A stretch of DNA of 64,000 nucleotides from a virus: the IMG/VR virus record IMGVR_UViG_3300042553_000685; one strand, given 5' to 3'. The notes beneath the pieces are model-generated. The model had not been told where the DNA came from, did not search any database, and was given only the letters and a program-made list of their open reading frames with translations. Below, piece by piece: positions 3,521 to 56,150 of this stretch; positions within the stretch are counted from its first letter, which is position 1, and each line of letters starts with the position of its first letter. The position numbers and the translations under genes were made by a program.

Positions 3521-3524
3521 TAGT

Positions 3525-18500: not shown

Positions 18501-18899
18501 ATGCAATTAGAAAGATTATTGGCTTTAGAGGCTCTAGAGCGACTTCTTGTTCGCCGTATTCGTAATGCGACTATTGAAGATACCTCTCTGGTATTCAACC
18601 TCAATGAGGGGTTGAGTACCAAACCTTATAAAATAGATATAGCTTCCTTACTACAAGGTACGCTCGAGTCTACATATTATAATTACCTGGCCGGCCGCAT
18701 GCTAACTGAGGGCTACACTTATACTGCAGTTGAGGGAGGTGAGATAGTAGAGTCACCTCGTGGTGATATCTATCAAATACATGGCACAGACTGTAGTTGC
18801 CCTCAGCGAGGTTACTGTAAACATCTCATACTGCGAGACTGGCACCTAACATACCGAGCGCGGCAGAATGATCTACGTCATCGCGTAAAACCTAGGTAG
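18501..18899 (+). CDS. SWIM zinc-finger protein
   Basis: CSCPQRGYCKHLI fits the SWIM CxC...CxH signature. ATG 18501 is preceded by aggtagg; the ORF track starts at an upstream TTG at 18477. It is the only plus-strand gene inside the minus-strand head operon. Confidence 0.6.
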   Translation: MQLERLLALEALERLLVRRIRNATIEDTSLVFNLNEGLSTKPYKIDIASLLQGTLESTYYNYLAGRMLTEGYTYTAVEGGEIVESPRGDIYQIHGTDCSCPQRGYCKHLILRDWHLTYRARQNDLRHRVKPR

Positions 18900-20232
18900 A
18901 GCTAATGGCATCGGGTAATCCAGTAATGGAACGTATGTGATCCTTATCTCCATCTACTAGGAAGCCCATGTCATGCATCTGCTTAATGGCATCTATCAGT
19001 GCTGCTAGATCAGTGGCCCTCCCCGGTAAACGAGTTATATAGCCCGTGTTGTTAGCCAGTGGGTATAGTGCAGGATCGAAGTTCAACCTGATTAGATTGC
19101 CTATGACCTGCTCAGTGAAGGCGTGTATCACTGTATCGAATATACTGTTGATCTTACCATCGAAGAGTTCTAGTTGAATCTCACTGGCCCGGCCTGTACC
19201 AAAGGTAGTCTCTCTATTCTGCATCAGTAGATTAGGAATACCCATACCCATTAGCATATTGTTATCGCAGAGTGATATGGCTCTTTCGAATGAGTCGCTG
19301 AAGTTATTACCTGTAGTTAGGGCCCCCACCTGTACCGGCTGCTCCTTACTGAGCTGTGTTAATACTAAACCAGAGTCGGTGCTTAGACGACGGAGTGCGT
19401 CCTCTGCCTGCTCCGCTATAGTAGTGGTTATCTCTGTACCATCGGGGGCCTCCTCTACTACGCCCGTATTACCGGGTGGCACTATTACGTATATGAGAGG
19501 GGTACCATAGCGGTCTAGAGCTATGAGCATCATATCTCGAAAGGCCCGCTTAAAGATAGAGTAGTCTAGCACGCTAGTGAGGCAACTGGTACCCCAGGGA
19601 TTATTACCCTTAGTGTTGTAATTAATGAATAGCCGTTTGTGACTAGGGAGTCGTACATGACTACCTACCACGTCTACTCTCTTAGGGGGGTCTCCTATTC
19701 TATAGGGAGGCAGAGGCACCCAGTAGCCCGACTTGTATTGACTAGCTGTTACTGTATCACCATCTACTATACGGCCATTGTCGTTAGTGATGAGCATGAC
19801 CTGTAGTGGGTGATAATTAACTATGTCATCTAATACCGTAGCCGGCATACTATCTCGCGTGCCGTGGGCGTATATCTGCTCGCTTAGACTGAAGCCATAC
19901 GTCATAATAGACTTCACGCAATGAGATATCCATGTCTTGGCTCTATTGCGTAGTTGGTCATCTATGAAGTTCTTAATGCGTTTATCCCCGTGTTGATAGG
20001 GCCCGACCTTATTAAGTACGCTCAGTGCTATAGAGTCGAGGCCCTGCGCTATGATAGGCTCCGCCTGCGCTGCCTCATCCCAGGCACTCAGCTGCTGATA
20101 GGTAGGCTTGCCTGCTCGTTTATAGCCACCATCCTCAGATAGATAACTAGTGGCTAGGCCTAGGTGCTCCATAGCGTAGATAGTGCGCCGGCGTATTGCT
20201 GGCGTGGTGGTATTACGTACTTCCATATTCAC
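18892..20232 (-). CDS. Putative portal protein
   Basis: 446 codons, upstream of the protease/scaffold and capsid genes. The segment NPWGTSCLTSVLDYSIFKRAFRDMMLIALDRYGTPLIYVIVP resembles portal (DUF935/Mu gp29-like) core patterns. Based on position plus a weak motif. Confidence 0.5.
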   Translation of the reverse strand: MNMEVRNTTTPAIRRRTIYAMEHLGLATSYLSEDGGYKRAGKPTYQQLSAWDEAAQAEPIIAQGLDSIALSVLNKVGPYQHGDKRIKNFIDDQLRNRAKTWISHCVKSIMTYGFSLSEQIYAHGTRDSMPATVLDDIVNYHPLQVMLITNDNGRIVDGDTVTASQYKSGYWVPLPPYRIGDPPKRVDVVGSHVRLPSHKRLFINYNTKGNNPWGTSCLTSVLDYSIFKRAFRDMMLIALDRYGTPLIYVIVPPGNTGVVEEAPDGTEITTTIAEQAEDALRRLSTDSGLVLTQLSKEQPVQVGALTTGNNFSDSFERAISLCDNNMLMGMGIPNLLMQNRETTFGTGRASEIQLELFDGKINSIFDTVIHAFTEQVIGNLIRLNFDPALYPLANNTGYITRLPGRATDLAALIDAIKQMHDMGFLVDGDKDHIRSITGLPDAISST

Positions 20233-21078: not shown

Positions 21079-24000
21079 ATGAGGCCACTGCCCGCTAAAG
21101 TAGGCAGTTTTTCAGCTATAGCTCTATTTAATAGGTTTTGTACTCTACTGATGGATATCAATAGCTCACTATTCTCTAGTAATCGATTTAATGACAGTGC
21201 TCGTTGGAATGCTCTCTACCGTATTCCTGAGGATACGCGCAGTAGATTATTACAGGGCTATAATCCTCTAGAAGTATTAATGGACCCTAACTTTATACCG
21301 CCTGGTACCGACGCCTCTATGGAGATGGTGCTAGCTGATGCTTTCTATGATAGGGTAGTTGATACTAGTAGTAGTCGAGCTGCTATCTCGAGTCTGTGGG
21401 ATAGTATGGAGGGCCCCGCTCGTCAGGAGTACTTCGAATACATGGCAGGTATGGGGGGTACAGCTACTCCTGCCCGTACCCAGACCGATGATATGCTTAA
21501 TTGGATGGCCCAGCGAGATCAGCTCACTATGCGGTCTAACCTAGAGGGCATAGACGATGAACGCCGCCTACTACTAGAGAATCGCTCTAGCATGTTGGAT
21601 CTAATATCTGATGATGGTTATAATGTACGGCCCGGCTTACTACCTATTGCCGCGCTAGTAGATACAGCAGAGAGAGAACTGCGTATAGACATTTATCAGT
21701 TCCAGAATGAGCGCGCTATAGATATGGTGGGTGAAGCTGTAGAGAGAATGGCTGGTAGTGGCCAGGGCGGCCGTGTGGTAGTTCGTATGGCTGCTCCATC
21801 TGAGACTGATGGAGACTCTCGTAAGAATTATGATATCCTGGGCCCCAACATTATGTTTTATAAGCGGCTGTCTTATCTACGGGACCGCTTCGGGAGTAAT
21901 GTAGATATAGATATCCAATGGGCTGATAGACGTAATCACCCTAAGTTCTTCGTTAGTGATAGGGCCGCTCTCATAGGTACGATGAACGTGACGCGGCCAC
22001 TAGGACAATCGCTAGAACAGGCGGGCTCTAATGTAGAGTTCACGCGGACTATACGCACTAACCTGACCTATAGCCAAATACAGGATGCCGATAGGGGTAT
22101 ACTGCCTGACATTATAACGCGAGCTGATAAGTTATACCTACAGGCCCGTGATGTTATGGATAGATTAGATGGTGGCGATAGAGTTCTATTCACGGGGCAG
22201 GATAGTATAGGTGGTGCTGGTGATGTTAATACTGCTCTACGCCGCCATATAGGTGAGCTCATTAATAGGCCTACTATCGATGGTAAAACGGGCCGCCTCT
22301 ATATGGTACTCAATCAGGTGTTCCTGCTCAAGCACGATAAGACCCTGATGGCAAGCCAGCTTAAAGGAGAGATGGGAGAGAATCCTGAGCATGAGAGAAC
22401 ACTATCGGGTTACCAGGCATACATGCAAGCCAGAGAGCAGGAATACTCTAAGCTCCAGGCTAATGTATTAGATCTGGTTATAGAGGGCCGCGCTCGTATA
22501 GGAGTAGATGTACATACCTATCGAGAGGATGTGCAGGACCCTATGAGCCGCTTACTACTGAGCAACCAGAAACTAGCTGCTGAGTTATCTCAATCTAATT
22601 ATGACGTGGCCCGCTGGATTAAGGAAAGCCGGGGTACTGATGTTAGTGATATGGCTAACGTGCTGAGCACGTATGGTTTCTATAGTGGAGATCTCGAAGG
22701 CCGGCAGCGTATGGCCCGACAATTATTAGCTATAGCTAGCGGTAATATAGAGCCGACCGCAGTACCGCGCAGCCACGTTAAGGCATACCTGGCAACCTAC
22801 GAGAATGATGTCATAAATCAAGGGGCCGGGCCTGGCATGCAGAATATAAACAATCGTCAGGCCTTCGATATCCTGGGTGGTAGTCAGGGATCTAGTAACT
22901 ATGGCCTTAATTCTCTGGCAGATAATGATGATCCCCTGAGCCGCCGACTCGTTAACCAGGAGATCAATATAATTTACGATAGGGTGGGTGGGACAAGCCT
23001 TCTCAGTCTCTCTGATGAGGAGCGTGATGAGGAGAATAGGGAATACGCGCGGGCCTTCTATAAATTACAGAGCTCCCTGGGAATACAACGAATAGGTGAG
23101 ACTCCTTATATTGGTCGGGACCGTAGGTCTATGTATGGTAATAGGGTAGATAGAGGAGCCATACTGGACCTAATCAGCGAAATAGAGAGAGTTAATGCGG
23201 CTGTCGGCTCTGAGATTATAGGCGTACAGCGAGACTACGATGGTCTTAACCTAGAGGGCGCTACTCTAACACTCAATAAGGGCCTACCTACTCAGCGTGT
23301 ATATAGATGGGGTGCCTATAAGAACGCTAGTGGACGGGGGCCCGCCGCCTTCATAGATATAAGTGGGGGTCGTCAGATAGAGTCAGCTGAGCTATTCAAT
23401 ACTGGCACAATGCGTATGGAGCTGGCTATGGAACGTGATGGTCTTGGTGTGGGTCTGGATCCTCGTAGACGCCTGCGCCTTAATCCACTGGATGTAGTAG
23501 TGGGTCTTATGAGCTCTATTGCGTTAGAGAGTGAGACTACTCGTTTAGTGCGGGCCCCACTTATGGAGTACCAGAGGTACTATAGCCCTGATAATATACG
23601 CGCCGCCCAGGCCGTACAGCGCGACCCCGGCGCTCAGTATCAGAGTGCCATAAACTTCTTCGAGAAGCTATTGGGTGTGAGTGGTCTTGACCTAACCACA
23701 GACGAGGGTACTAGTAGAGTACAGCAGGGCCTCAGTAACCTGACCTCCTTGTTCTACTCTAGTGACCCTGATCTAGATCGTATACGAGACCTAGCGAGTA
23801 TATCTCGTATTGATAGCCGCCGTAGAGTGGCCTTCGAGGAACTATCTAACATATTTCTTACCTATGCGCGGTCTGTAGATGAGAGAGGCCTACCCATAAT
23901 AGACCTAGAGGCACACCGTAGAGGGGCCCTTAATCTTGCCGCTAATAAGCTATATGAGATTATGGATCAGGGCCCTATGTTCGCTGATGTGTTATTCAAG

Positions 24001-27000
24001 TTTATCGAATCCCAGAATGATAGCCGTTATAAGACTGATGTGCGCGAGAGGTTAAAGGAGATACATGATAGTGCATTCGCCGCGTTCCTTACTCCTACAC
24101 AGGCTCGTAATTATGGTTCTACACAAGCAAGTAATCGTTTACTGGCCTATGGCTTTGGTCAGGGTAGGCAGCCCGCTGGTATATCTATAGTTAATGCTGC
24201 ACTACGTCGTATTAAGGCTAATGAGACTGCCTTTAGTAATCTGAGTGCCTTTGCTTATACTGCTAGCCCACTGCCTATAGGTCCGGTATCTGACCTTGGT
24301 GTAGGCGATGACTTCCTCTTTGTACGAGTTGCTGAAGGTAATATAGACTCTACGGCTACTGATGAGAGCCAGTACTTTACTGGCTATAGTAATGTGCTAC
24401 CTCTATCTCGCCGTGCCACTGCCAGTGAGGTCTTCGACCTATCCATCATACGCAGTACTGGTGTGGGGGATATCATACGGCGAGATGAGCTGAGCGAATA
24501 CATGAAGGCAGTGAGTCATTTGGGTATAGACCGCTCCCTGCTAGAGGCAGAGTTTGATGCCCGCGGCGATAACCTACTCCGGTTCTTCTTTGATCCTAAT
24601 AAGCCGGATCAGGTGCCTCAGCGTCTTAAGAACGTGATTGGTATGCGCCCGCTCATGGATATAAGCGAGGGTTATACCCAGGTATTGGAGTTAGTTAGTC
24701 CCACTAATACTGGTAAGGTCATACCTGAGTTGACCCCCGTTAGGTATCGAGCCCGTTACGGAGGTAGCGATGTAGATGTACTGCAGGGCAGTATGTATCA
24801 GGACGCATACCTAGCTGACCTGCGCGCCGGGTTAGATGCACGTGGACTAGATAGTAGTATCGTAGATGATAGCTATCGCTATGGTGCTATATTCAGTGGT
24901 AGAATATCTCGCTTTATGAGTAGTGAGGCGGCTGTAGAATTAGAGGCTATACGGTATGAATTAGCCGACCGCCTGGGTATCGATAGTGAGGATATACCCA
25001 CTGAGGATGATAGCGTACTGGCCGAGCTATTCCGCGCTACTATAGTGCAATCTCAACTCTTCGCTAGTAGAGAGCGTGGATTGATAGGCTCTGGACGGGC
25101 CCGCCCTACTGTTATGATTATGGCACTGGAGGGAGCCTATAGTGACTACGCGTATGCTAACCCTCTACATAGGGTAAGACGCGGCTTCCTAGATCAGGCT
25201 ACTAAGAGTAGTAAGGCTAGTCTATTAGGACGAGACTGGACATTCGATAATGTACTAGTGAGTAGCGATGACCGTATTGTATTCGATGAGAGAGAGCAGC
25301 GCTACTATCTACTAGATAGAGAGGGGCGTCGTAAGCAGGCTATCACTAGTCGTAGTGAGATGCGCGTGTTCCTAGACCAGATAGAGAGTACATCTCGTAA
25401 TCCTAATATGGGGGCCGCTATGGCTACTAGTGCCGCAGCCGGTATACGCGGCGAGTACGCTATTGAGCAGCTACTACAGGTTAGTAGGCTGACTGGTAGC
25501 GATGCTACTAATGAAGTGCAGGTGCAGATACAATTCCTACGCACTCTACTTGAGGGTGGCTCTCGACGGGTAGAGGCAGAGCGCGGTCTGGCTAAGATAG
25601 TCCCTGTGTTCCTGAGCGAGGATATTATGCGTAGTGAGGTGTTCCCCACTATACAGCAAGGGGGCTATCATAGTGCCCTCGAGATAGAGGACATCCAGTA
25701 TATAATCAGCCCTACTAACCTGAAGAGCTACGCATTCAACCACGGGGCTACTCTACTTACTTATAATGGCGGGGAGCTATTCCGTCGGGGGGTACTAGAA
25801 CGGAATGATCAGCAGATAGCGGCCGCTCTCCTTTCCATAACTGATTCGCGTCTCTTTAGTAATAATAGCAATATCAATATAGACAGTGTCTATATAGAGA
25901 TAGCACAGTTGGCAGCGCAGGGGCGGCTCGGTAATTACTATCGTGACCTCTATATGTCTACTATGCTGGAACTTATGCGGAGTGATAAGCTAGGAGATGG
26001 CTCCCCTCATCTCGAAATAGGTAGGAAGCTAGTACGCGGGGGTGATGGTGCTATTAATAGACTACAGAGTCCTGTTCTAGGGGCCATTGATATATCAGAG
26101 ATAATGACAGCCCTGCGTAGTGGAACTAGTAGCGGGGCATTATCCGATAAGGTAGGTCTGATAGTAGATGCAGCAGATGCAGCGCGCAGGGGTTATGTAG
26201 ATACTGGGGCTATGGGCCGCGGCTTTGAGCGCGCTGCTATAGCCGGTAATCTAGAGATTATGATGCAGCTCATGTCGCTTAATAATACCCTAGAGCTCAA
26301 GACTACGCCAGTGACTGGTAGCGATAGTATATCTCGTCATGCGTATGCGGCTATGAGCGCTATAGCAGGTGTTACGCAGGCAGATGAGATAAGCGTAGGC
26401 CAGGAGAACGTGGCCGTTATGCTCGATAGATTGAGTAATTACTCTCGCTATGTAGTGCTATATAATGCCGTGATGGGTAGTAGCTCTAAGGTGCCATTGA
26501 GTAGTAAGGACACTGCGCAACTAGAAATGCAGCATATAGTATCTAGTCCCTTCATGGCTAACGTGGATAAATTCAAGCGTGATGGTAGTGTTGATAGTAT
26601 GCGTAGGGCTATCCTTGGCGTCATGAAGATGGCCATAGGGGCAGACCCCAATAAGATAGCGGTGGATGACATCCCTATGTATGACCTGGCTAGTCTGGAC
26701 TTCCACGCTAACTCTACGTTGGGAGAAATACTACTAGGGGCCTATAACGATGCGCGGGCCCCATTAAGCGATATAACTAATCTACGCGAACGATACAGGC
26801 AGTTCCACACTGCCTTGTCTCTACTCGAGAGTGCCAGTGATACTGACATGGTGTCATATACTAGAGGGTCGGGCCTCGATATTACTAATGTTACTCATAC
26901 TATACTTGATGAGATAGCGACATGGATGGGGCAACCTGCTGGGACTGATAGAGATACTCTGCGTAATGTAGTGCGCCAGTCACTTCGTGTCCTGAAGAAT

Positions 27001-30000
27001 GATATATATGCCCATGCGTCTCGCTGGCGTCTAGCAGGGGATAAGGTACTGGGTGTAGAGGCTACTGAAGCTACCGTGCAGTCAATGGGCCAGAGGGGTC
27101 TTCGTCGTATAGCTTATGAGTTCCCCTCCTTCCGTATAGAGGGGAATAACGTTGTATTCAATACAACTATTAAGGATAGGGGATTTATCCTGAGTCCTGA
27201 GGACGTGAGGATAGCAGGTATCCAGTTCGGTAGCCACGAGAATGAGATAGCTGCTGCTACGGTAGATAAGTGGATTATGCTGGCCCCCGGTAGTGCAGTA
27301 CGCGATATCTTCGAGAAGGTGGCCATTGAGTCTGGCTCGAGGACTACTGTTGAACTGGAGGGCCTCAGTGACTTCCAGATACAGGAGTTGACTCGGTTCC
27401 AGGAACTCAACAACACTTATGAGGCCCGCGTTTATAATGACCTGGCGAGCGCATATCTGCAGTCTATCACTGGTAATAAGATAGGCGTGACAGGTACTAC
27501 TGGTGTGGGGGCCGCTAGCTGGTATGTACCTGTGCGCGGCGCCGTACTAGCAGAGGCCACTATGGAGCGCTTCGGTACGCGAGGTAGTCAGACACGAGAG
27601 GAGATACTTACTAGATTAGGGGACCATCTTAAGAATAACCTGTCTGTTATTGGCCAGTCAGGTGATAAGAGAATTGGTCGTAGGTTAATACAACAGCAGA
27701 TATACGCTATAACTGAGGGCCTCAGTATAGCGGGCATGTATGGGCTGGAGGCAATAGTAGATAAAAGTAAGAACTTCCAGAGCAAAGCGGCCGGTATAAG
27801 AAAACTGGCTCCTGATTCACAGGCAGCTGAATACGCTCAACTAGAGATAGAAATTAAAGTTGAGATGGATAGATTCAGTAGCATGAAATTCAGCGGTAGC
27901 GGGGATTCTCTGATATCTACTCTAGGTGAAGCCGAGATGGGCACAATACTAGAATCTCTGCCTGGAGCTGAAACTCATAAGTATAGAGATCTGGGTCACT
28001 TACCTGTTATTATCTCCGGGCTCATGATAGGTAGTCATGGCCCGTCCCGCTCTATCATACCTGATAATATGCGTATCTACATTGACACTAATGCATTAGG
28101 TAATAGGTTTGATAACCTGGATCTACTACAGGGCCGCATACGTAAGAATCCCATAGACCTATCCTTCTTCAGTGATACGCGTGGTAAGGATGGTGCTGAG
28201 ATGCTGAATATATTCTCTACTAGACTAGATAGTCTAGAGAGAACTATTAATGCCGTGACCTCTGCTGTAGATACGTATTTAGAAGGTAAGAGCCCCCGGG
28301 GCACTGATTTACATAATAGAGGCGTGGCTCTCATAGCTCAGTATAGGAAGCTGGTAGATAACGCAAACGCCGCCTATGCAGTGGAACTAGATACAGTAAT
28401 GGCTAATCGTGCAGCGCGCGATTCATTATTCATAATGAATAGTACTCTGCAGGCTGATATGAGTATGTTCTTCACTGAGCTGGAGTTAACGAGAGCCTGG
28501 ATTCAACGTAGCCCGCCCCCTGGGAACACCCATCTCGATAAGCTGGTGTTCGGCTTAGATACACTCAATAGTATTAATAACATATACCGGGACCTAACTG
28601 GCAGTGGCTTTAACTTCTTTGATGATACTCGTAATAAGTCGTTGACTCTACTTAATCCTATTAGCTTTATAACTAGTAACCTAGGGGACTTCGATGGGGA
28701 TACCTTCAGCGCTATATTCTTCAATTACTCTCAAATGAAGTTGCAGCGCGATGATATGCTGGAACGAGCTAAGGAACGGCGGGAGATGGCATCTCAGGCC
28801 GCTGATCCCGCTAAGCGTACCATTCTAGAGAAGCAAGCTAATGACCTAGATATGCGCGCCAGTGCTTTACTGGATACTATACAGCAGGTAACCACTAATG
28901 CTAATTGGAATGAGTATACCGACTCAGTGTATAGCTGGGTAGCGGGCTATATGAAATTAGATAAGGGTATGCTGGAACAGCGAGGTATAGAACATGCCCT
29001 GGTATTAGTAGAACAGTCCCGCGGTCTCTTTGGTATGATGGAGGACGTATACGCGCGTATACAGCCGGCCCATGAGCCCCTATTAGAATTAATACAGCAG
29101 AGCAGAACTGATAATGCAGTTGATATAGTTAATAGATTATCTACCTCTACAGACCAGAACATACTAACCGATCTCGTTAATAACCCTGATACGGGGCCAT
29201 TCGTGCGGGCTAGTCTACATGATATCCTGAGCGCTACAGGTAATGATCAAGAAGAGAAGGCCTATGACTTCCTGCATAAACTAACTGCTGTTAATGCCCG
29301 CGATAATCTCAGCAAGTACATGAAGCGCGCTGATGGTAGTGTCATGAGCGGCGGCCAATTCGATATGATGCAGAAGGTACTGGGCCAGGCAGGTAGTGTA
29401 ATCCTCGGTAAGACGTATAACACTACCGTGGGTATGCTATACGAGCGCTCCCCTATCATGGCTGTGTCTCACGCACTAGAGAATAGCCCGGCTCTACAGG
29501 ATGACATGCGCCGTATACTAATCGATCAGGGTATGGCAGGAGGCATGAGCGCGAGTGATGCTAACCTAGAGGCCGATAGTAAGATAGTGGATATACAGAG
29601 ACTGGCTCGCCAGAGTAGAACAGAGGTAGGCGAGGTAGGCACATTCCTGCAAGAGATACAACAAATGCTACGGGACGCTATTAAGCCTAAGATGGGGGGT
29701 GCTGAGTTCCTAGAGAACTTATCGCAGTACCATAAGCGCTTTGTAGATGCTGTCGATGATGTGGAGCGCCAGCGTGTAGTAGATGATATGAGTAGACTAC
29801 TACCATCTATAACTCCTCTATTTAAGTTAGATGCGTATATAGGAGCTCATAAAGAATTACTGGCATCAGCTACTAATGATGCCCAGGACTCTAAGATTAA
29901 TGATCTGCTGACTAAGCTATCCATTGGAGAAACTGAGCAGTTAGATTTATCTCGTCGATTGAGCGTACTGCGAAGAGATGAGATAGGTACCCATAGCCGC

Positions 30001-31767
30001 GCCCTCATAGCCAGTTATCAGCTACGTCAGGACCTAGTAGGTATGACGGCTGTATTCGCCTTCGAGCGGGCTATGCCAACCGATAAGGCAGGTAACCCCA
30101 TTAGCTCTGGTAGAGGCCTAGCAGAGAGTGTAGAGACCTACATAAATAGTGAGCCCGCGCGGGCCGCTCAGATAGATGCTCTCATAGCCGGCGGCATCAC
30201 TAATGGCCTCACCGAGATGGAGATAGAAGTAGAAGAGTTTCAGAACTTCACTCGTGACGTAATAGGAGATAAGCGCTTCCAGGATATGGGAGCGGATACT
30301 AAGCGTATATTAGCTATGAACTTCCTACGTAGTAGGGAGAGTGCATCACTCTGGGCTAATATTGATGGTAGTAAACTACTGCGCTTCGCTATTAATGATA
30401 GTACCCGCTCCACACTATACGGAGGACAACTAGAGGATGTACTTGGTCAGGATCTGATTACTGCCGCTGGTGACCTTACTGGCTCAGGAGCTAGTCCGCT
30501 GGTTAGATCACTGTTACAGGCTGTATCGGCCGGGAAGATAAACGAGCCTGAGCAGGTAACACGGGCTCTCGAGTCTCTTATGGATACCTTCACTCACGCT
30601 GATGGTAAGCGCTATGAAATAGCAGACATCTTTAGCGTATTACTCAATAGCGGTACCCCTAGCCCAGCTGATAAGGAGATAGCAGAGTTTATTCAGAAGA
30701 CAGTTCTCACAGATGAGACAGCCACTAGTCGATTAGTTACTTATGTTCGCGCTACAGCGCTAGGTCAACAGGTAGATACAGCCGATAGACTAGTAGAAGA
30801 GCTACGGGACTATGAGAGTCGTGACGTCGATACGCGCTATATAAAACTGCTACAGGATATGGGTGTCGCTCCAGATAGGGCTAAGGAGTTATCAGCTCGT
30901 CGGCGCGACTATCTACTGGCCGGCTCACCCCCTGATGTGGACCCACTGGATCCTCGCCCGCGACCAGATCGCCCCCTCTTACGCGTAGTAGATGATCTAC
31001 CTATTCTTAACAATACTGCCGGTAATCTAATGGATGTACTTCTATTCCCCTTATTAGCGTTGGCAGGAGATATGATTAGTAGTGGCGGAGCCCGCCCCGA
31101 GGCAATGCAGCAGACTATGGGTAATATGCTAGGCGCTATGGCCTACGTAAGCGCCCCAGCAGGTAACCAGATGGGACGTTTCGCTGCAGGTACTCTGATG
31201 AGTATGGGATTCAAGGGCCGCTTAGCAGGTCAACTACACGAGGACTATACAATTGGTGTCGGTATGCTATTAGCACAGGAGATAGCCTTTGGCGCAACAG
31301 CTCAACTCGCAGGCCGCTATATCATCAACCCATTCGTAGAGAAGACACTCGGTAAGGCTCCCACAATAGACTCTGACCCATTCGCGGGCCTGCGTAATGT
31401 AGCTAGCAACGTCATCACGGGGGCATTGAGCCTCGTATCAGCAGGCTTCGTAAATAAATTACTCCATCGTGGGCTAGAGGTCAGTATGCAGCGTAGTGTA
31501 GCCCCCGTGGCTCTAGACGCTGTTAGTGCCGGTATACGCGCTACTCAAGAAGCTATTAATCAGGCTCGCATGGAACGAGAGGATAATGCTGAAACCGAGG
31601 TCGTAGATGACGCGGGCTCCCCTGTTGAGTTCTTCGTACAAACTATATTCAATGGTGATGAATACGACACCTATGACGCCCTCTATATGAGTGACCTAAC
31701 ATTAGATCGTCCTAATAGTATGGCCTATCGAGATGAGAGCGAGAGTTACTCTATGGATCTGGTTTAA
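21079..31767 (+). CDS. Giant multidomain protein: HKD/PLD motif + beta-prime-like double-psi-barrel (DFDGD) motif + hydrophobic Gly-rich C-terminus
   Basis: Uninterrupted 3,562-codon ORF (alternative start ATG 21151). HPKFFVSDRAALIGTMNVT at 21937-21993 fits HxK(x)4D(x)6G(S/T)xN. QRSPPPGNTHL...LLNPISFITSNLGDFDGDTF lies at 28504-28710. The C-terminus has LLFPLLALAGDMISSGG...GALSLVSAGFV. Confidence 0.85.
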   Translation: MRPLPAKVGSFSAIALFNRFCTLLMDINSSLFSSNRFNDSARWNALYRIPEDTRSRLLQGYNPLEVLMDPNFIPPGTDASMEMVLADAFYDRVVDTSSSRAAISSLWDSMEGPARQEYFEYMAGMGGTATPARTQTDDMLNWMAQRDQLTMRSNLEGIDDERRLLLENRSSMLDLISDDGYNVRPGLLPIAALVDTAERELRIDIYQFQNERAIDMVGEAVERMAGSGQGGRVVVRMAAPSETDGDSRKNYDILGPNIMFYKRLSYLRDRFGSNVDIDIQWADRRNHPKFFVSDRAALIGTMNVTRPLGQSLEQAGSNVEFTRTIRTNLTYSQIQDADRGILPDIITRADKLYLQARDVMDRLDGGDRVLFTGQDSIGGAGDVNTALRRHIGELINRPTIDGKTGRLYMVLNQVFLLKHDKTLMASQLKGEMGENPEHERTLSGYQAYMQAREQEYSKLQANVLDLVIEGRARIGVDVHTYREDVQDPMSRLLLSNQKLAAELSQSNYDVARWIKESRGTDVSDMANVLSTYGFYSGDLEGRQRMARQLLAIASGNIEPTAVPRSHVKAYLATYENDVINQGAGPGMQNINNRQAFDILGGSQGSSNYGLNSLADNDDPLSRRLVNQEINIIYDRVGGTSLLSLSDEERDEENREYARAFYKLQSSLGIQRIGETPYIGRDRRSMYGNRVDRGAILDLISEIERVNAAVGSEIIGVQRDYDGLNLEGATLTLNKGLPTQRVYRWGAYKNASGRGPAAFIDISGGRQIESAELFNTGTMRMELAMERDGLGVGLDPRRRLRLNPLDVVVGLMSSIALESETTRLVRAPLMEYQRYYSPDNIRAAQAVQRDPGAQYQSAINFFEKLLGVSGLDLTTDEGTSRVQQGLSNLTSLFYSSDPDLDRIRDLASISRIDSRRRVAFEELSNIFLTYARSVDERGLPIIDLEAHRRGALNLAANKLYEIMDQGPMFADVLFKFIESQNDSRYKTDVRERLKEIHDSAFAAFLTPTQARNYGSTQASNRLLAYGFGQGRQPAGISIVNAALRRIKANETAFSNLSAFAYTASPLPIGPVSDLGVGDDFLFVRVAEGNIDSTATDESQYFTGYSNVLPLSRRATASEVFDLSIIRSTGVGDIIRRDELSEYMKAVSHLGIDRSLLEAEFDARGDNLLRFFFDPNKPDQVPQRLKNVIGMRPLMDISEGYTQVLELVSPTNTGKVIPELTPVRYRARYGGSDVDVLQGSMYQDAYLADLRAGLDARGLDSSIVDDSYRYGAIFSGRISRFMSSEAAVELEAIRYELADRLGIDSEDIPTEDDSVLAELFRATIVQSQLFASRERGLIGSGRARPTVMIMALEGAYSDYAYANPLHRVRRGFLDQATKSSKASLLGRDWTFDNVLVSSDDRIVFDEREQRYYLLDREGRRKQAITSRSEMRVFLDQIESTSRNPNMGAAMATSAAAGIRGEYAIEQLLQVSRLTGSDATNEVQVQIQFLRTLLEGGSRRVEAERGLAKIVPVFLSEDIMRSEVFPTIQQGGYHSALEIEDIQYIISPTNLKSYAFNHGATLLTYNGGELFRRGVLERNDQQIAAALLSITDSRLFSNNSNINIDSVYIEIAQLAAQGRLGNYYRDLYMSTMLELMRSDKLGDGSPHLEIGRKLVRGGDGAINRLQSPVLGAIDISEIMTALRSGTSSGALSDKVGLIVDAADAARRGYVDTGAMGRGFERAAIAGNLEIMMQLMSLNNTLELKTTPVTGSDSISRHAYAAMSAIAGVTQADEISVGQENVAVMLDRLSNYSRYVVLYNAVMGSSSKVPLSSKDTAQLEMQHIVSSPFMANVDKFKRDGSVDSMRRAILGVMKMAIGADPNKIAVDDIPMYDLASLDFHANSTLGEILLGAYNDARAPLSDITNLRERYRQFHTALSLLESASDTDMVSYTRGSGLDITNVTHTILDEIATWMGQPAGTDRDTLRNVVRQSLRVLKNDIYAHASRWRLAGDKVLGVEATEATVQSMGQRGLRRIAYEFPSFRIEGNNVVFNTTIKDRGFILSPEDVRIAGIQFGSHENEIAAATVDKWIMLAPGSAVRDIFEKVAIESGSRTTVELEGLSDFQIQELTRFQELNNTYEARVYNDLASAYLQSITGNKIGVTGTTGVGAASWYVPVRGAVLAEATMERFGTRGSQTREEILTRLGDHLKNNLSVIGQSGDKRIGRRLIQQQIYAITEGLSIAGMYGLEAIVDKSKNFQSKAAGIRKLAPDSQAAEYAQLEIEIKVEMDRFSSMKFSGSGDSLISTLGEAEMGTILESLPGAETHKYRDLGHLPVIISGLMIGSHGPSRSIIPDNMRIYIDTNALGNRFDNLDLLQGRIRKNPIDLSFFSDTRGKDGAEMLNIFSTRLDSLERTINAVTSAVDTYLEGKSPRGTDLHNRGVALIAQYRKLVDNANAAYAVELDTVMANRAARDSLFIMNSTLQADMSMFFTELELTRAWIQRSPPPGNTHLDKLVFGLDTLNSINNIYRDLTGSGFNFFDDTRNKSLTLLNPISFITSNLGDFDGDTFSAIFFNYSQMKLQRDDMLERAKERREMASQAADPAKRTILEKQANDLDMRASALLDTIQQVTTNANWNEYTDSVYSWVAGYMKLDKGMLEQRGIEHALVLVEQSRGLFGMMEDVYARIQPAHEPLLELIQQSRTDNAVDIVNRLSTSTDQNILTDLVNNPDTGPFVRASLHDILSATGNDQEEKAYDFLHKLTAVNARDNLSKYMKRADGSVMSGGQFDMMQKVLGQAGSVILGKTYNTTVGMLYERSPIMAVSHALENSPALQDDMRRILIDQGMAGGMSASDANLEADSKIVDIQRLARQSRTEVGEVGTFLQEIQQMLRDAIKPKMGGAEFLENLSQYHKRFVDAVDDVERQRVVDDMSRLLPSITPLFKLDAYIGAHKELLASATNDAQDSKINDLLTKLSIGETEQLDLSRRLSVLRRDEIGTHSRALIASYQLRQDLVGMTAVFAFERAMPTDKAGNPISSGRGLAESVETYINSEPARAAQIDALIAGGITNGLTEMEIEVEEFQNFTRDVIGDKRFQDMGADTKRILAMNFLRSRESASLWANIDGSKLLRFAINDSTRSTLYGGQLEDVLGQDLITAAGDLTGSGASPLVRSLLQAVSAGKINEPEQVTRALESLMDTFTHADGKRYEIADIFSVLLNSGTPSPADKEIAEFIQKTVLTDETATSRLVTYVRATALGQQVDTADRLVEELRDYESRDVDTRYIKLLQDMGVAPDRAKELSARRRDYLLAGSPPDVDPLDPRPRPDRPLLRVVDDLPILNNTAGNLMDVLLFPLLALAGDMISSGGARPEAMQQTMGNMLGAMAYVSAPAGNQMGRFAAGTLMSMGFKGRLAGQLHEDYTIGVGMLLAQEIAFGATAQLAGRYIINPFVEKTLGKAPTIDSDPFAGLRNVASNVITGALSLVSAGFVNKLLHRGLEVSMQRSVAPVALDAVSAGIRATQEAINQARMEREDNAETEVVDDAGSPVEFFVQTIFNGDEYDTYDALYMSDLTLDRPNSMAYRDESESYSMDLV
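21087..21150 (+). promoter_or_regulatory. Hairpin + TTTTTC element upstream of ATG 21151 (weak variant of the early cassette)
   Basis: actgcc (21087-21092) pairs with ggcagt (21103-21108), followed by tttttcagctatagctctatttaatagg. It lies inside the 5' extension of the giant ORF and argues for a start at 21151 (MDINSS...). Confidence 0.35.
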
Positions 31768-32283: not shown

Positions 32284-32528
32284 CGTATAACTCCTGATTT
32301 CTTAAGGTAGTGTCCTAAGTAAACATATAGTAGCTTAAGGTGCTGAAGATAGGTACGGTTAACTCCGCGTAGTAATCTCTTACTTATTCTAATCCTAAGG
32401 ATATCTATATCAGCTGGTGTATCTAAGTAATATAAGCGTAGGAGCTGGTGTATGTCCTCTGGCTCCAGCTCCTCTAACTTCACCTTATCTAGTGGCGCTA
32501 GCTTATCTAGTAGTGTTAGCTTGTCCAT
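32280..32528 (-). CDS. Hypothetical protein
   Basis: I prefer ATG 32528 (MDKLTLLDKL...) over the track's TTG at 32552. Confidence 0.45.
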   Translation of the reverse strand: MDKLTLLDKLAPLDKVKLEELEPEDIHQLLRLYYLDTPADIDILRIRISKRLLRGVNRTYLQHLKLLYVYLGHYLKKSGVIR

Positions 32529-33418
32529 GATCCATTTCCCTGGCGAGCCCAATAATTATCTACTAATGGGGCTGTATCCCCACCGTTATTCCAGAAGTTC
32601 TGCGGCATACCACTCCTATTGGGGGGTAATAATCTGGTCGCTAGACTAGAGCCTACAGGGTGCTGTAGTATATCGCTCTCTCCTGAGTGATTTATCTCGG
32701 GACTGAAGCGAGAGAATAGATACTCTCCCCAAAACTCCACGGTTACGGTAGAGGGGGCCCCTAGTAATAATTCTAGTAGTTTAATACGTATAATAGGCCA
32801 GTGCAATAAGAATATACCGCTGACTACCTGGGCCGGCCCATCAAGAGTCTGTAGTATCTCTACCGTGTGAGATACGGGGGGATCTACGACTACACGGGCG
32901 GCCACCCTCTTACCTACATTGACTAGAGGTAGTACATAGGGTGTAGGAGGAAAGGTACCCTGCTCTTGTCCTAGTGATGGCCAATCAACGGGGCGCTGCC
33001 ATACCAGCGTATTCACACGCTTAGGTCTATAGTGCTTCTCCTGCCTATACGTATTAATACGCTTCTGCCACTGCAGGAAATCACTATCACTGGGCGGGCC
33101 CATATTATAGGGATTAGACACTGAGCCATAGTATACGTCCTCGTAGAAGGGGCGTATGAGTCTATAGTAGTGATCTGCTTCATATACACGAGAATATTGG
33201 CCCAGGCTGACCATATCTAATCGTACGAGATCTGTCTCGTTGAAGCGTATCTCGTGATATCGTCTACTATACACGCGGGCCCCCTGTGTGGTAACCTGCT
33301 GCTCTCCTACTACCCATTCCTCCTCCAATTCACTATTGAACTGCTGTATGACGGCATTAGTAGTAGTGGGGGGTGCGCTTATGGTGGCAGGCTGTGGATC
33401 TCTATTAAATGTAAGCAT
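32516..33418 (-). CDS. Hypothetical protein
   Basis: 300-codon ORF. Its ATG overlaps the PAAR gene stop. Confidence 0.55.
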   Translation of the reverse strand: MLTFNRDPQPATISAPPTTTNAVIQQFNSELEEEWVVGEQQVTTQGARVYSRRYHEIRFNETDLVRLDMVSLGQYSRVYEADHYYRLIRPFYEDVYYGSVSNPYNMGPPSDSDFLQWQKRINTYRQEKHYRPKRVNTLVWQRPVDWPSLGQEQGTFPPTPYVLPLVNVGKRVAARVVVDPPVSHTVEILQTLDGPAQVVSGIFLLHWPIIRIKLLELLLGAPSTVTVEFWGEYLFSRFSPEINHSGESDILQHPVGSSLATRLLPPNRSGMPQNFWNNGGDTAPLVDNYWARQGNGSWTS

Positions 33419-37933: not shown

Positions 37934-38003
37934 GAGCTCTTAGATTCTTGATATTTGCTGGCGGTATTTTGGTCTATTATAAGGTATACCCCCTCCCCCA
38001 CCC
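37934..38003. repeat. 70-bp direct repeat, copy 1
   Basis: gagctcttagattcttgatatttgctggcggtattttggtctattataaggtataccccctcccccaccc. Confidence 0.9.
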
Positions 38004-38043
38004 TCCTGCTGGCGGTATTAAACTATATACGTATTAATACCTA

Positions 38044-38113
38044 GAGCTCCTAGATTCTGGATATTTGCTGGCGGTATTTTGGTGTATTATAGGGTATACC
38101 CCCTCCCCCACCC
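38044..38113. repeat. 70-bp direct repeat, copy 2
   Basis: gagctcctagattctggatatttgctggcggtattttggtgtattatagggtataccccctcccccaccc. It has 4 mismatches to copy 1, a 110-bp period, and a partial third ctgctggcggtatta at 38007-38021. Confidence 0.9.
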
Positions 38114-38208
38114 AGGGGCTATCCATTTCAACTAATATAGGGATGCTCGATCCTCTTGGGTATTGGTATCACCTGCTTCAAGTAGATGGTGGTATGGCAT
38201 TAATAATA

Positions 38209-41419: not shown

Positions 41420-42157
41420 ATGAGAAACAACAACAACAACGACAACCAGGCCTCTAATCAAGCCTCTAACCAAGCCTCTAACTCCAAAAGCTACGTATTT
41501 ACCCTTAACGTAAGTCGCACTGCCAGCACTAAGTCTGGCGTTCTTGCTTACGTGCACAATGGTGCTATCAAGCGCCGCCTGGATGGGTCTAGCTACTGGC
41601 TGGAGTTCCGGCTGATATCCATTAAGAACGGGGAGGTACCTCTCACTACCTCCGATGGTCGTAGTTTATGTACGTCCGAGTTTGTAAAGCTTCTCTCTGG
41701 AGACGCTAGCGATGACGTGATAATGTCTGTAGAGTTATCTACAGATTTCGAAGACGGGTGGGATAGCTCGTGGGGATGTGTAAAAGTTAGCTTCAACGCA
41801 GAAGACCTCCGCGTTGGGCGCGAAACAGAGTACAAGGGCACAATAACCCAGTACCTTCACCTTGAAGGTGCGGAAATCCAACTTCATCGGGAAGTTGTCC
41901 GTCCGAAAATAGACCCGTCTATACTAGATGGGTTTGAAAGTATCGCAAAGCCTAACGTAGTAACTGCGGAACAGTTACATAGTAAAGCGGCCGCCCGCAA
42001 ACGCAAACGGGAGGCTGCTAAGGCTGCACGAGATGCTGCAGCAATAGTATCTAAGCCAGGTACTGTTGTTGAGTCAGTAGTAGCGTCTAATGATACTGAT
42101 ACTGATTGGGAAGTGCCGGCTGCCCTATCCGTCGACATCGACTATATACTTGACTAA
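41420..42157 (+). CDS. Early protein with N/Q-rich N-terminus and basic Ala-rich tail
   Basis: I prefer ATG 41420 (MRNNNNNDNQASNQ...) after the cassette. The C-terminus has AAARKRKREAAKAARDAAA. Confidence 0.6.
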   Translation: MRNNNNNDNQASNQASNQASNSKSYVFTLNVSRTASTKSGVLAYVHNGAIKRRLDGSSYWLEFRLISIKNGEVPLTTSDGRSLCTSEFVKLLSGDASDDVIMSVELSTDFEDGWDSSWGCVKVSFNAEDLRVGRETEYKGTITQYLHLEGAEIQLHREVVRPKIDPSILDGFESIAKPNVVTAEQLHSKAAARKRKREAAKAARDAAAIVSKPGTVVESVVASNDTDTDWEVPAALSVDIDYILD

Positions 42158-42162
42158 TAAAA

Positions 42163-42215
42163 GGGGCCCTGCTTGGGCCCCTTTTTCCTTTAGTGGCTAT
42201 ATATTACCACTAACC
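42163..42215 (+). promoter_or_regulatory. Early cassette I
   Basis: ggggccctgcttgggcccc tttttcctttagtggctatatattaccactaacc ATG(42216). Confidence 0.55.
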
Positions 42216-45200
42216 ATGAATACCATCAACTCTATCGTCTTCCAATCCAATGTTCTCGTAGCCTCTATCGGCGCCGTTATCGCAAACACTCGTGTTACTA
42301 CACGACGTGTAGGCCCTGGTCGCCGTGCTCAGCAGATAGCAAGCCGCCGCGCTAATCGCGTAGTACGCCGTCGCTCTCGTCGTATTGCGTCGGCTGGTCG
42401 TCCTATCCGCTCCTTACCTCAAAGCCAACGCCCCTGCGTTGTAAAATCGGCACGACGTACGCTACGTCGTGCCGCAGCTGCCACAGTCTTAGCCGCTCGC
42501 AAACCCGTGTTACGTAACCGTAACGTCGTAGACAAACTTATCTTACGACAACGTAAGGCCAAACCTATAATGCGCGCTGTCAGCGCAGTATTTGCGCGTC
42601 CCTCGCGTCCTACTAACACCGGCACCGGCACTAAAGCCGTTGCTACCGTAGTTAATAATGCTGCTGGTAGTATTATCGCTGCCCTCGACCAAGGGCGCCT
42701 AAACTATCGTGGCAACGGCCGCACATGTGTGGGCAAGAAGTACAAAACTAAAAACGCTAAAGCCGTTTTAGCGATAGCTAAAGCTGCTAAAGCTACTGAT
42801 AAAGCAGCACGCGTTAAACGCTGTATGAGCGTTGTAGTACCAGAATTACCAAGTGATGTACTGGCTTGCCGCATGAGAGTCGTAGGCAAACTATGCGGTG
42901 TGACCTTTGTACAAGGGGACATAGCGTCTTATTGTGACAATGTCGTTACTATACCTTCATTCGAAGATATATACGCGATAACTCACGAGCTTGTCCACCA
43001 CTGCCAAGCTCTAGGTCTTACTGAAGACCTAGATATAGCTCTGGTGTCTGAGGCCGCTATTGGCGCGGGCTCGGCTCAATGGCATGACACTAAATCGTTC
43101 TACGAAGGTACTGAGCATGAGAATGATGAATACGAAGCAGCTCTGCTTATGTACGACCCGGCGTTAGTGGCCCGCCTCTTATGCACTCACTACCTCATGA
43201 CCGCGTTTGTAGAAAGCGGGGCACCTGGTCCTGATGATACATGGATGGATGTGGTAGATAGTTTAGATCCTGCGATTTGTCGTGAAGTCGTAGGTCTCGA
43301 TGATCGCGTACTCGATTATAAAACCTATGGCGAATATGCTGAAGCCGTTGGATATGATGACACTAATACGTTATTAGACTGGGAATTTGTCTTTAACAAT
43401 AGTGTCAACAACGATAATGCTGTTGCGCTAACCATTCAAGCAATTGATGGTCTTATTGGTGCGGCGCCCGCAGCAGTAACTCCTACCCACCCGCTCTCTA
43501 ACATAGGAGCCCCTACTAAGGGGTTAGAGAGTGATAGCTCCTCTAACAATACCACCAACACTAGCACTACCATGAAGAGCATTATCGAGATGTTAATTCC
43601 TGACCCTAGTACTCTCGGTGGAGCCGTGTCTCCTAAGCAGGAGGCGCGCATTACGGGAGCTCGTAAAGAGTTAACCCGCTTGTTTGGGGCTAATAACTTC
43701 GACCTTCTGCCTGAAGGTCCGATTCTCTATGTCGTATCTGGTTACAACCGTATGTGTAAGAAGTTCCTTGCGCTTCTAGACCATCGGGTTGTTTACACCA
43801 CGGATTCTAAAATGAATCCTAAGGTCATTAACTTAGGTGTAACTAAGTCTATTCCCTATGAAGACGACAAGCATACCTATACTACTAAGACCGAATGCTT
43901 AGTTAGCATGTATAGTGAGCACTTCCTCACTAAATTAGCCACGTGGTCTGGTGATGACCTGGCCGCTCTTGTAGGCTGCCTGTGTATTAAACAACACCGT
44001 ATTGTTAGTGTTGAGGGCCCCTGTGTTGTCATCAAGGGTAATAACCGTAACACTACTTTCAACTTTAGTACAGGTACCGTCAATGACGGCCGTCAGAGTC
44101 GCATCGCTAATGAGCTAGTTAAAGTAGGAGGCAAAGACTACAGTGGTCGTGTAGCCCTTGTAGCGCTCTGTATGAAGGTAGTGTATAACGCTACTGGTGC
44201 GCGTGCTATCCTCAATGAGGTAACTAACCTATGGCGCGAGGACATCAACTACGGCGCTCAGCCTAAAGAGGGTCAATCTCTATTTGAGATTAATCGCTGT
44301 ATGTCCCGTCCTGTTGTTTTCAAGCCTTGGGATAAGGCCTTCCCGTTCCTGCAAGTGGAGAACGTTGGCCTCGCACCCAGCGATCTTGAATTGTCGCTCA
44401 AAGCCGGTGTCATAGCAGCACCTGATAAATACAATTCAAAATGGATCGCTGTAGGTAAGGGTGCCAAGGCCATGTTCCTCGGACTTAAGGATAGTAAGAT
44501 ATACTCCATCCATGACTTCAGCAAGCCCACTAAGGTATACAACCGTCCACCTAGCTCGGGTAAATACACCCGTGCTGAGGTGGTAGGTCGTCATGATAGC
44601 CTACTTCGCGTTGATTTAGGTGATGGTAGCTATAGTTGTGGTGGTGGCCTCTATCTACGCACCGCATTCACCAATAGCCGCTTTGGCTTTGGCAGTGGTG
44701 TTGCTGCTATACGCCGCGACCTTGAGTTCGAATACACCGTACCGAAGACCATTACTAAGGAGTTTCACGTACTCCGTATTCCTAGCGAAGTCCGCGCTCT
44801 TATGGCTGCTGATCTAGATGACCCTATGAGTAAACTCATGGAAGTCATCGAAGGCAAAATAGAGAAGGCAAAGGGGCAGGTCTATGCTCCTGGTAACCCT
44901 ATCATTAGCATTATGCGGGGCAAGTACTGCATAGTGAAGAACGAGACATTCGCGCAGGACATCCGCGTAATAGGCGGGACTGTCACGCGTAATGGCGTCG
45001 AGGGCCGCGCTGATAGCGTCACTATTCGACTTGAGACTGAGATGGTAGGGCGCGACCAAGCCCTCAAACTCCGCGGTCTAGGTAAGAAGCTTACCACTCT
45101 TCCCTATGACGTTGAGGGACTATCTCAACCCTGGGATATCATCCTAAATAACGAGACCACCAAGGGATGGCCCGCGCTCATAGAGATGTTCGCCATTGAG

Positions 45201-47395: not shown

Positions 47396-47757
47396 GACAG
47401 CGAATGTTACTAGCGGCGGCTTATGCTCGTGACGGCGAATTCTATTAGCGGTGGCAATAAACTATCTGTTGGGTACTCCCTAAGCACCCAGCAAGAGCTG
47501 CGTTAGTTTCATTAGCCACTCCCTTTCAGAAGAGCTATTGTCGCGATAGCTACCATAGCTATATTAGCCACTCCCCAACGGAGGAGCTTATGGTACTCGA
47601 GCTGCGAAAGTAGCCAGTGCCACTCCCCAACAGAGGGGCTTGTGTCGCACTAGTCGTGATAACTACTATAGCTGCACTAGCTGCTCTAGCCACTCCGTTG
47701 GGGAGGGCCTATGGTACTCGAGCTGCGAAAGTAGTCGATACCACTCCCCAACGGAGG
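47396..47757 (+). repeat. Non-coding array of short repeats and hairpins (candidate structured RNA or origin/iteron region)
   Basis: A 25-nt pair at 47396-47420 / 47431-47455 (20/25 identical). gccactcc-ccaac-ggagg-type hairpin units at 47567, 47619 and 47740, plus one at 47689 with the loop inverted (gttgg). A 24-nt duplicate atggtactcgagctgcgaaagtag at 47590 and 47711 contains a GCUGC-GAAA-GUAGC hairpin. Confidence 0.7.
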
Positions 47758-47798
47758 GATATAACCTCTAATTACTCATTATTACCTATTAGCTAGCC

Positions 47799-53985: not shown

Positions 53986-54312
53986 TCACACGTAGGCGGC
54001 CTGCTCACTCCTGAAGATATCAAGTAGGGGATCGATAGTAGATCTAAGGCCAGCCATGAGATGGCGAGCTGCATCAGTAGGTAGGCCCCGCCACCAGCGT
54101 TGCACCTTCTCCTGAGCCCAATCGAGGCCCAATCGCGTCATAGTGCACTGTAGTGTGCGCTCAAGCAGGCGGGTGAACTGAGCGAGGGGGCGTATATCAC
54201 CACTATCGGTACCGTAGTGTGCTACCCACTGAGAGGGGTCAGCGATAACCTCAGGATTCTGAGTAGCGTAGGCCAGGAGTTTATTCTCGATGGGGTTAAA
54301 TACAGAAGCCAA
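53986..54312 (-). CDS. Hypothetical protein; 5' end abuts the IS607 left end
   Basis: 108-codon ORF whose only start is TTG 54312. The frame is open only 8 codons further upstream, to a stop at 54339-54337. Confidence 0.45.
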   Translation of the reverse strand: MASVFNPIENKLLAYATQNPEVIADPSQWVAHYGTDSGDIRPLAQFTRLLERTLQCTMTRLGLDWAQEKVQRWWRGLPTDAARHLMAGLRSTIDPLLDIFRSEQAAYV

Positions 54313-54365
54313 AAACCTAACTAATATTATCCAAAATTACTCATGACTTGTGCTATAATAGTTCT

Positions 54366-56124: not shown

Positions 56125-56150
56125 ATTTGAGTAGGTTTAATAGAACGGTC

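Follow-up and report, generated by a model that had tools for sequence, protein, structure and literature searches.

Among the cultured lytic viruses that infect bloom-forming, toxin-producing Microcystis, phages of the Ma-LMM01 type are the main group. The 64,000-nucleotide stretch analysed here (IMG/VR virus record IMGVR_UViG_3300042553_000685; hereafter the window) is a Ma-LMM01-like genome, and the subject of this report is a giant open reading frame (ORF) at 21079-31767, which is gp080 of a Ma-LMM01-type Microcystis myovirus. In Ma-LMM01, whose genome is 162 kb long, this one gene accounts for about 6% of the sequence. Compared over a 3-kb piece, the ORF has a nucleotide identity of 98% to Ma-LMM01 and of 96% to the MaMV phages, and nucleotide identities of 96-98% were found for the ORF in nine deposited Microcystis phage records. 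The initial annotation of the window was right to treat the ORF as real, given that it is a single open frame with colinear homologues in which the motifs are kept. The features of gp080 are listed below, with residues numbered in amino acids (aa).

21079-31767, plus strand: giant ORF of 3,562 aa with an ATG start, uninterrupted; homologue of Ma-LMM01 gp080 (YP_851094, 'hypothetical protein')
21586-22998, plus strand: PLD-superfamily, two-HKD phosphodiesterase/nuclease-like domain, aa ~170-640, with PLDc_2 matches
21937-21987, plus strand: HKD motif 1, HPKFFVSDRAALIGTMN, canonical HxK(x)4D(x)6GTxN (H287, K289, D294, N303)
22774-22905, plus strand: HKD motif 2, degenerate, HVKAYL...GSSNYG (H566, K568, S605, N607)
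25546-25608, plus strand: conserved loop GGSRRVEAERGLAKIV, with invariant R1497, L1504 and K1506
25705-25752, plus strand: conserved loop SPTNLKSYAFNHG, with invariant K1549, H1555 and G1556
26479-26556, plus strand: conserved block S.SK.P...K.....E.QHL...PF, aa 1801-1826
28504-28536, plus strand: QRSPPPGNTHL, aa 2476-2486
28507-28524, plus strand: invariant R-S-x-P-x-G (RSPPPG), aa 2477-2482
28630-28722, plus strand: conserved block RNKSLTLLNPISFITSNLGDFDGDTFSAIFF, holding invariant D2537, D2539, G2540 and D2541
28687-28701, plus strand: DFDGD, aa 2537-2541
29374-29466, plus strand: conserved block K.LG.AGS.ILGKTYN..G.LY...P.LA, with K2778, Y2780 and N2781 invariant or nearly so
29659-29688, plus strand: conserved block QLLRDSIKPK, with Q2862, R2865, D2866 and K2869 invariant or nearly so
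31006-31698, plus strand: conserved Gly/Ala/Leu/Met-rich C-terminal module, aa 3310-3540
31021-31092, plus strand: hydrophobic stretch of transmembrane length, aa 3315-3338 (Kyte-Doolittle 1.64)

The N-terminal part of gp080 contains a PLD-type domain, which is supported because both HKD motifs are conserved and 12 of the 14 family members searched hit the Pfam family PLDc_2 with an E of at most 0.1 (lowest E 5.7e-8). Translation places HPKFFVSD at aa 287-294 (nucleotides 21937-21960) and starts HVKAYL at aa 566 (nucleotide 22774) and GSSNYG at aa 604 (nucleotide 22888); the HKD motif, HVKAYL/GSSNYG, QRSPPPGNTHL and DFDGD all lie where the initial annotation had put them. In an alignment of 14 sequences (aa 170-700, 23-51% identity), H287, K289 and N303 of motif 1 are invariant, as are H566, K568, S605 and N607 of motif 2 and the downstream E628, which bears out the second HKD that had been proposed as a possible degenerate copy. 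Furthermore, a profile of aa 170-700 searched against the PDB ranked the nicking-joining enzyme of poxvirus virions and the PLD4 exonuclease highest, with matches confined to the HKD motif (E 0.03-0.2), and the proposal of a PLD/Nuc-type domain holds. Members of the PLD superfamily carry two HxK(x)4D(x)6G(S/T)xN motifs per chain or one per dimer subunit. Like other PLD nucleases and phosphodiesterases (PLDc_2/PLDc; the poxvirus enzyme, called a virion enzyme in its PDB entry; the PLD3/PLD4 5'-3' exonucleases), gp080 has two HKD motifs in one chain, about 280 residues apart. Unlike canonical PLD, its motif 2 lacks the Asp at +7 and has a long insert between HxK and GSSN; unlike PLD enzymes, it carries the PLD domain, with a putative phosphodiesterase or nuclease activity, at the head of a chain of 3,562 aa. 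The UniProt label of gp080 (seen via BFVD) is 'PLD phosphodiesterase domain-containing protein', hence the domain is not new.

The gp080 family comprises giant proteins of Ma-LMM01-related cyanophages and their uncultured relatives, and was previously undescribed. An exhaustive HMMER search with aa 1900-3099 yielded 39 cluster representatives (50% level), nearly all of 3,000-5,400 aa, and a further 36 loci, about 25 of them distant, came from IMG/VR, JGI metagenomes and GTDB genomes. A copy at 26% identity is present in a Microcoleus phage. Homologues are colinear over aa ~170-3540 (local phmmer), with conservation broken by variable stretches at aa 2200-2440 and 3000-3300. A PHROGs search with gp080 returned its own singleton-like family PHROG 31006 only, a Pfam scan of the whole window gp080 gave no family above cut-off, and Pfam found no additional domains in two larger family members (P0036 and P0023).

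The most striking element of the central region is D-[FYWL]-D-G-D, which shows no exception among the 38 representatives spanning this site or the metagenomic loci that reach it, across family identities of 17-48%. By chance, a protein of gp080 composition is expected to contain 0.12 occurrences of D.DGD and 0.004 of DFDGD, so that the motif is weak evidence when taken alone. R-x-x-P-x-G is also invariant across the family, 55-65 residues upstream of the acidic triad, and LLNPISF begins at aa 2524, between the two. R2477, P2480, G2482, Y2624 and L2650 are invariant or nearly so, as are P2016 and G2139 upstream of the motif region. Some 25 polar positions (R, K, H, D, N, Q, Y), the acidic triad among them, are fully or almost fully conserved and fall between helical bundles, in poorly modelled stretches.

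These stretches were located in two AlphaFold2 models, one of aa 2440-3010 from a 22-sequence alignment (model 1; predicted local distance difference test (pLDDT) 61.5, predicted template modelling score (pTM) 0.41) and one of aa 1465-2660 from a 21-sequence alignment (model 2; pLDDT 64.4, pTM 0.39). Together they cover aa 1465-3010 and are largely helical. In both, the conserved motifs coincide with low-confidence stretches that separate confidently helical segments; pLDDT is below 50 at aa 1465-1510, 1798-1819 (including aa 1801-1819 of the block at 26479-26556, in model 2), 2132-2170, 2353-2376 and 2466-2542. A double-psi beta-barrel (DPBB) was sought in both models and none was found, with low confidence at the conserved loops. 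Around 28.5-28.7 kb, where the initial annotation had expected a two-barrel fold, none was predicted. Because pLDDT drops below 50 exactly at the conserved loops, this result is an absence of support for a polymerase and does not refute one. Foldseek searches of both models against the PDB gave nothing better than E 0.5 and, among the matches listed, no polymerase beyond a chance-level one (E 5.5), a negative that is informative only if the library includes the structures of gp66 of crAss-like phage phi14:2, gp96 of Thermus phage P23-45, QDE-1 and cellular polymerases. Against BFVD, the significant matches of model 2 were gp080 itself only.

Residues 3291-3500 are enriched in Gly (10.5%), Ala (13.8%), Leu (11.9%) and Met (5.7%) compared with the whole of gp080 (7.6, 9.2, 10.3 and 3.4%). 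The C-terminus had been described as membrane-active-looking; it contains one segment of transmembrane length only, so the description draws on this composition and that single segment.

The giant gene adjoins the virion genes of the phage. Two neighbouring features are of particular relevance:

18892-20232, minus strand: portal gene (PHROG 113, E 1e-37), divergent from gp080, with a 120-aa ORF between them
32516-33418, minus strand: gp076-like 300-aa ORF (PHROG 35244), downstream neighbour of the giant gene

Outward from gp080, the minus-strand order is portal, major head, tail sheath, a 623-aa ORF, baseplate and lysozyme/M23 peptidase genes. In a relative with 45% identity (L026), the portal gene is likewise upstream and divergent. 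In a relative with 25% identity (L019), genes for the portal, PHROG 32941, a Ma-LMM01-type major head protein and PHROG 28926 come after the giant gene in this order, all on its strand. Portal (PHROG 113), major head (PHROG 30785) and PHROGs 32941 and 28926 adjoin the giant gene in the window and in both relatives. The 300-aa ORF of PHROG 35244 recurs downstream of the giant gene in L026 and in two further loci (L012 and L013), and may be a functional partner. During infection, gp080 is transcribed in the 'middle' class B5, which it shares with the portal gene gp083 and not with early genes; its transcripts are undetected at 0 and 1 h and rise at 3 and 6 h (PMC5780444 Table S3). The same table lists a predicted sigma70-like promoter ahead of the gene.

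Taken together, gp080 is probably an enzyme of several domains that is delivered by the virion and combines a PLD nuclease with another, putative metal-dependent centre. Virion delivery is plausible from gene position and expression. In the manner of ejected enzymes encoded in morphogenesis modules, the gene adjoins portal and head genes in three lineages, is expressed in class B5 and is silent at 1 h; the portal/capsid adjacency, the PHROG 35244 neighbour and the class B5 expression therefore fit a packaged protein. The protein would be packaged in the head and would enter the cell together with the DNA. Its PLD domain may act as a phosphodiesterase or nuclease on nucleic acid, its target being either host DNA or phage genome ends or nicks, and the acidic triad with the surrounding basic residues could form a second, Mg2+-dependent site for nucleic acid or nucleotides. 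The C-terminal module may aid membrane passage or capsid targeting. Several points weigh against such an enzyme: the window gp080 matches PLDc_2 at E 2.1e-4 and 21.6 bits, under the 27-bit gathering cut-off; the predicted folds are weak (mean pLDDT 61-64 and pTM ~0.4 in both models); a single C-terminal segment is hydrophobic enough to span a membrane; and a literature search found no virion proteomics for the Ma-LMM01 phage group.

That lack of proteomic data also suits an unpackaged gp080 with an intracellular role in the middle period (DNA processing, recombination or host-genome degradation), whose proximity to the portal gene would be incidental. The middle expression class includes replication genes as well, and PLD-type nucleases often work on DNA inside cells. 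However, the portal/capsid adjacency is kept down to 25% identity despite differing gene orientation, and the great size and C-terminal hydrophobic module appear to resemble those of ejected proteins; a purely intracellular role is therefore judged improbable. Far less credible still is a tail tape measure protein with fused enzymatic domains, as in P23-45 gp96, although the predicted body is long and helical, a hydrophobic segment lies near the C-terminus and the non-significant BFVD Foldseek matches are mostly tape-measure proteins (E at least 0.035). This identity was rejected because of gene position: gp080 does not lie between the tail sheath/tube and baseplate genes, being beyond the portal gene on the opposite strand, and the slot between sheath and baseplate is filled by the 623-aa ORF. 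Tape measure proteins span about 1.5 Å per residue, and with a Ma-LMM01 tail roughly 90 nm long, 3,562 residues would span several times the tail length. The 623-aa ORF itself (6283-8154, minus strand, PHROG 34291) is by position the likely tape measure protein.

The putative metal-dependent centre of gp080 had been interpreted in the initial annotation as the core of a two-barrel RNA polymerase. On this reading, the central region would be a single-chain enzyme whose DFDGD forms the Mg2+ loop of a beta-prime-like barrel and which is injected for early transcription, like gp66 and gp96. The arguments for it begin with the invariance of the triad and of R-x-x-P-x-G at low identities, with 'NP' 11 residues ahead of the first Asp of the triad and a beta-like 'YT.IF' after it. 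The resulting layout, R-x-x-P-x-G...NP-x9-GD-b-DGD-x-[YF]-[TS]-x-[IV]-F, resembles the barrels of beta-prime and gp96, and is arranged as in E. coli 'NRAPTLH...HP..(8)..DFDGDQMAVH'. Model 1 has a hairpin around RSPPPG (E33-35, E51-53), and the invariant R1497 and K1506 lie nine residues apart in a 'G.L.KGV'-like loop, with many other invariant basic residues in loops. There is also a precedent, given that gp66 and gp96 were found via DxDxD in a giant virion protein and were otherwise undetectable by sequence (PMC10770324), and the published Ma-LMM01-type genomes report no polymerase (PMC9927357).

The sequence and structure tests do not extend this likeness beyond the motif. Between RSPPPG and DFDGD the models show helix and coil, at a pLDDT below 50. 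When family profiles were compared with P23-45 gp96 and E. coli RpoB and RpoC by hmmsearch, nothing past GDFDGD was matched, and neither Pfam (20 members) nor PHROGs (17 members) linked the family to a polymerase. A 99-column profile of the motif region searched against PDB sequences had antibody light-chain CDR-L1 loops ('SQSVDYDGDSY') as its best matches and no polymerase; an exact, even invariant, DFDGD motif alone is no evidence of a polymerase. Against a beta-prime barrel profile of 81 sequences built from viral contigs, hhalign aligned 20 columns, covering GDFDGD and the following strand only (P 2e-4, probability 45%), a point for the polymerase reading; once the motif was masked, the flank upstream of it aligned out of register (P 0.26). 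Comparison of gp080 with the P23-45 gp96 core, RpoB and RpoC by hhalign gave nothing significant.

Ten conserved blocks had also been matched by eye to conserved regions of beta and beta-prime (QRQ, GYNFED, GDK..KGV, PSRM, bridge helix and trigger loop), an assignment that was withdrawn. When the blocks were scanned against E. coli RpoB and RpoC with the predictions recorded beforehand, none had its best match at the predicted site and none beat shuffled controls. The likeness of the GGSRRVEAERGLAKIV loop to the beta-subunit motif 'GDK..R.G.KGV' was not above chance. Candidates for the basic pair of the second barrel (DPBB-B) are the invariant R1497/K1506 and K1549/H1555, for which no barrel was modelled and similarity to RpoB was not above shuffled controls; candidates for the bridge helix and trigger loop are aa 2640-2656, 2764-2796 and 2855-2870, for which RpoC scans were not above chance. 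Thus, gp080 has the DxDxD triad of two-barrel RNA polymerases, a motif that is non-diagnostic alone, and shows no profile similarity to polymerase families beyond it. Known families such as gp96 fail the same profile comparison (PMC10770324), and such similarity is therefore not strictly defining. Early genes carry sigma70-like promoters (PMC5780444), so that an injected polymerase is not obviously needed. A literature search found no earlier polymerase call on gp080. On balance, a two-barrel polymerase in central gp080 is possible but doubtful. The protein can be grouped with the giant multidomain proteins of the phage virion module. A polymerase core in gp080 is an attractive, tentative idea that failed every test made here, the structural tests being weak.

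Giant virion enzymes have several precedents. The virion RNA polymerase of coliphage N4 (gp50, ~3,500 aa) is carried in the particle and injected; its catalytic domain lies centrally, between domains for injection and encapsidation. It is T7-like, with a right-hand fold and not two barrels, and has neither a DxDGD motif nor a PLD domain. Close parallels exist with P23-45 gp96, which, like gp080, is giant (5,002 aa), is encoded in a structural module, has an exact DFDGD with an upstream R-x-P ('FRNPVMGHG'), lacks other sequence similarity to polymerases and has hydrophobic segments towards the C-terminus (PMC10770324). Its polymerase activity and crystal structure have been shown experimentally (PMC10770324). 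In contrast, gp96 is the tape measure of a siphovirus with an N-terminal polymerase (aa 327-1124), whereas gp080 belongs to a myovirus, is encoded away from the tape-measure position and carries the motif much further along the chain, at aa 2537; furthermore, gp96 is without the PLD domain of gp080, and gp080 has neither a predicted barrel nor any likeness to the core of gp96 by hhalign. The gp66 protein of phi14:2 is likewise a large virion-module protein recognised from a DFDxD motif, and is ejected to transcribe early genes (bioRxiv 10.1101/2020.03.07.982082). It differs in being a 2,180-aa podovirus protein with a solved two-barrel fold (PDB 6VR4, per PMC10770324), and it was not retrieved by Foldseek of the gp080 models. 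The 'polyvalent proteins' of phages and conjugative elements are also very large and multi-catalytic, with proposed delivery alongside incoming DNA (PMC5512222). That study mentions no Microcystis phage, HKD/PLD domains or gp080 family, and the only Pfam-recognisable domain of gp080 is PLD. P23-45 resembles the Ma-LMM01 relative in one more respect, as it encodes a second, smaller DxDxD protein (gp64). The second D.DGD gene in the window, a possible partner of gp080, is:

42090-47297, plus strand: gp064 homologue of 1,735 aa, 'hypothetical', with '...GQVIGIQRTPMG-x29-NPLLWHAVNEGDADGDQC' at nucleotides 46203-46328 as a candidate catalytic loop

Among ORFs of at least 100 aa in six frames of the window, gp080 and gp064 are the sole two with D.DGD, and they share NP-x6-N-x-G-D-x-D-G-D. 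The motif stretch of gp064 reads '...GIEEGQVIGIQRTPMGFVLCGRVKFSATDAFIAHYTINPLLWHAVNEGDADGDQC', and in spacing and flanks its RTP...NEGDADGDQ block is nearer to the beta-prime Mg loop than that of gp080. A polymerase-like enzyme, if any, may thus be gp064 and not gp080, or the two may form a pair like gp96 and gp64 of P23-45; either is conceivable, at a level as tentative as that for gp080 itself. In 'GIEEGQVIGIQRTPMG-(29)-NPLLWHAVNEGDADGDQC', 37 residues separate the R from the first D, compared with 35 in E. coli beta-prime, and the block is kept in a homologue from a Microcoleus phage at 27% identity ('GDVVGIGRTP...NNGDTDGDPC'). Alignment of gp064 with the beta-prime profile (hhalign) covered both elements in one 51-column stretch (P 0.03), and with the motif masked the flank stayed in register over 42 columns (P 0.06), which is marginal and better than for gp080. 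In addition, gp064 lies directly upstream of the early gene cluster. However, these P values are marginal and come from a query profile of two sequences only, Pfam and PDB sequence searches with gp064 were empty, and no similarity between gp080 and gp064 was detected beyond the 26-residue motif. On this view, the DFDGD loop of gp080 could be either a remote paralogue or a metal site that arose by convergence.

Other searches with gp064 were similarly sparse, as a 201-aa query against an index of 5.8 billion proteins returned one fragment. The N-terminal ~250 residues of gp064 are extremely Arg/Lys-rich. In the Microcoleus phage (L122; OR578708.1, 322-10554), the gp064-like protein is itself giant (annotated coding sequence of ~3,410 aa), and that genome therefore carries two giant DxDGD proteins.

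Transcription during infection by Ma-LMM01-type phages is puzzling, as it proceeds through three temporal gene classes while the host transcriptome barely changes; a promoter motif specific to the phage has not been found, and the annotations include neither a sigma factor nor a polymerase of phage origin (PMC5780444, PMC9927357). It is conceivable, and rather unlikely, that these phages have two extremely divergent two-barrel polymerases, a packaged, PLD-fused gp080 and a gp064 encoded beside the early genes, which would mirror P23-45. If so, the published view of total dependence on host RNA polymerase at sigma70-like promoters would be incomplete. The analysis places gp080 in a conserved, capsid-module-linked family and gives it a supported PLD-type nuclease domain and a putative second site built of invariant acidic and basic residues. 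Together with gp064, it offers concrete experimental targets for either a new phage polymerase lineage or a new kind of ejected enzyme.

The intergenic region between the gp064-like and gp063-like ORFs (47491-47758) contains four to five diverged copies of a unit of ~46-52 nucleotides. In Ma-LMM01 its counterpart is an array annotated as 42-bp repeats, which immediately precedes the early operon. The core of the unit, GCCACTCCCCAACGGAGG, is a small hairpin with the stem CTCC/GGAG, and one copy is inverted, CTCCGTTGGGGAG being 100% complementary to CTCCCCAACGGAG. The published early promoter (-35 TAGCCA) falls in the last repeat of the array (PMC5780444). Elsewhere in the window, a 110-bp unit at 37934-38139 is present in 1.9 tandem copies with 84% identity, and the 36-38 kb bin around it has strongly negative GC skew (-0.285) and AT skew (-0.247). 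The G+C content is 0.37-0.43 over 54001-64000, compared with 0.46-0.51 in most other parts of the window, and this region may be a module of different origin.

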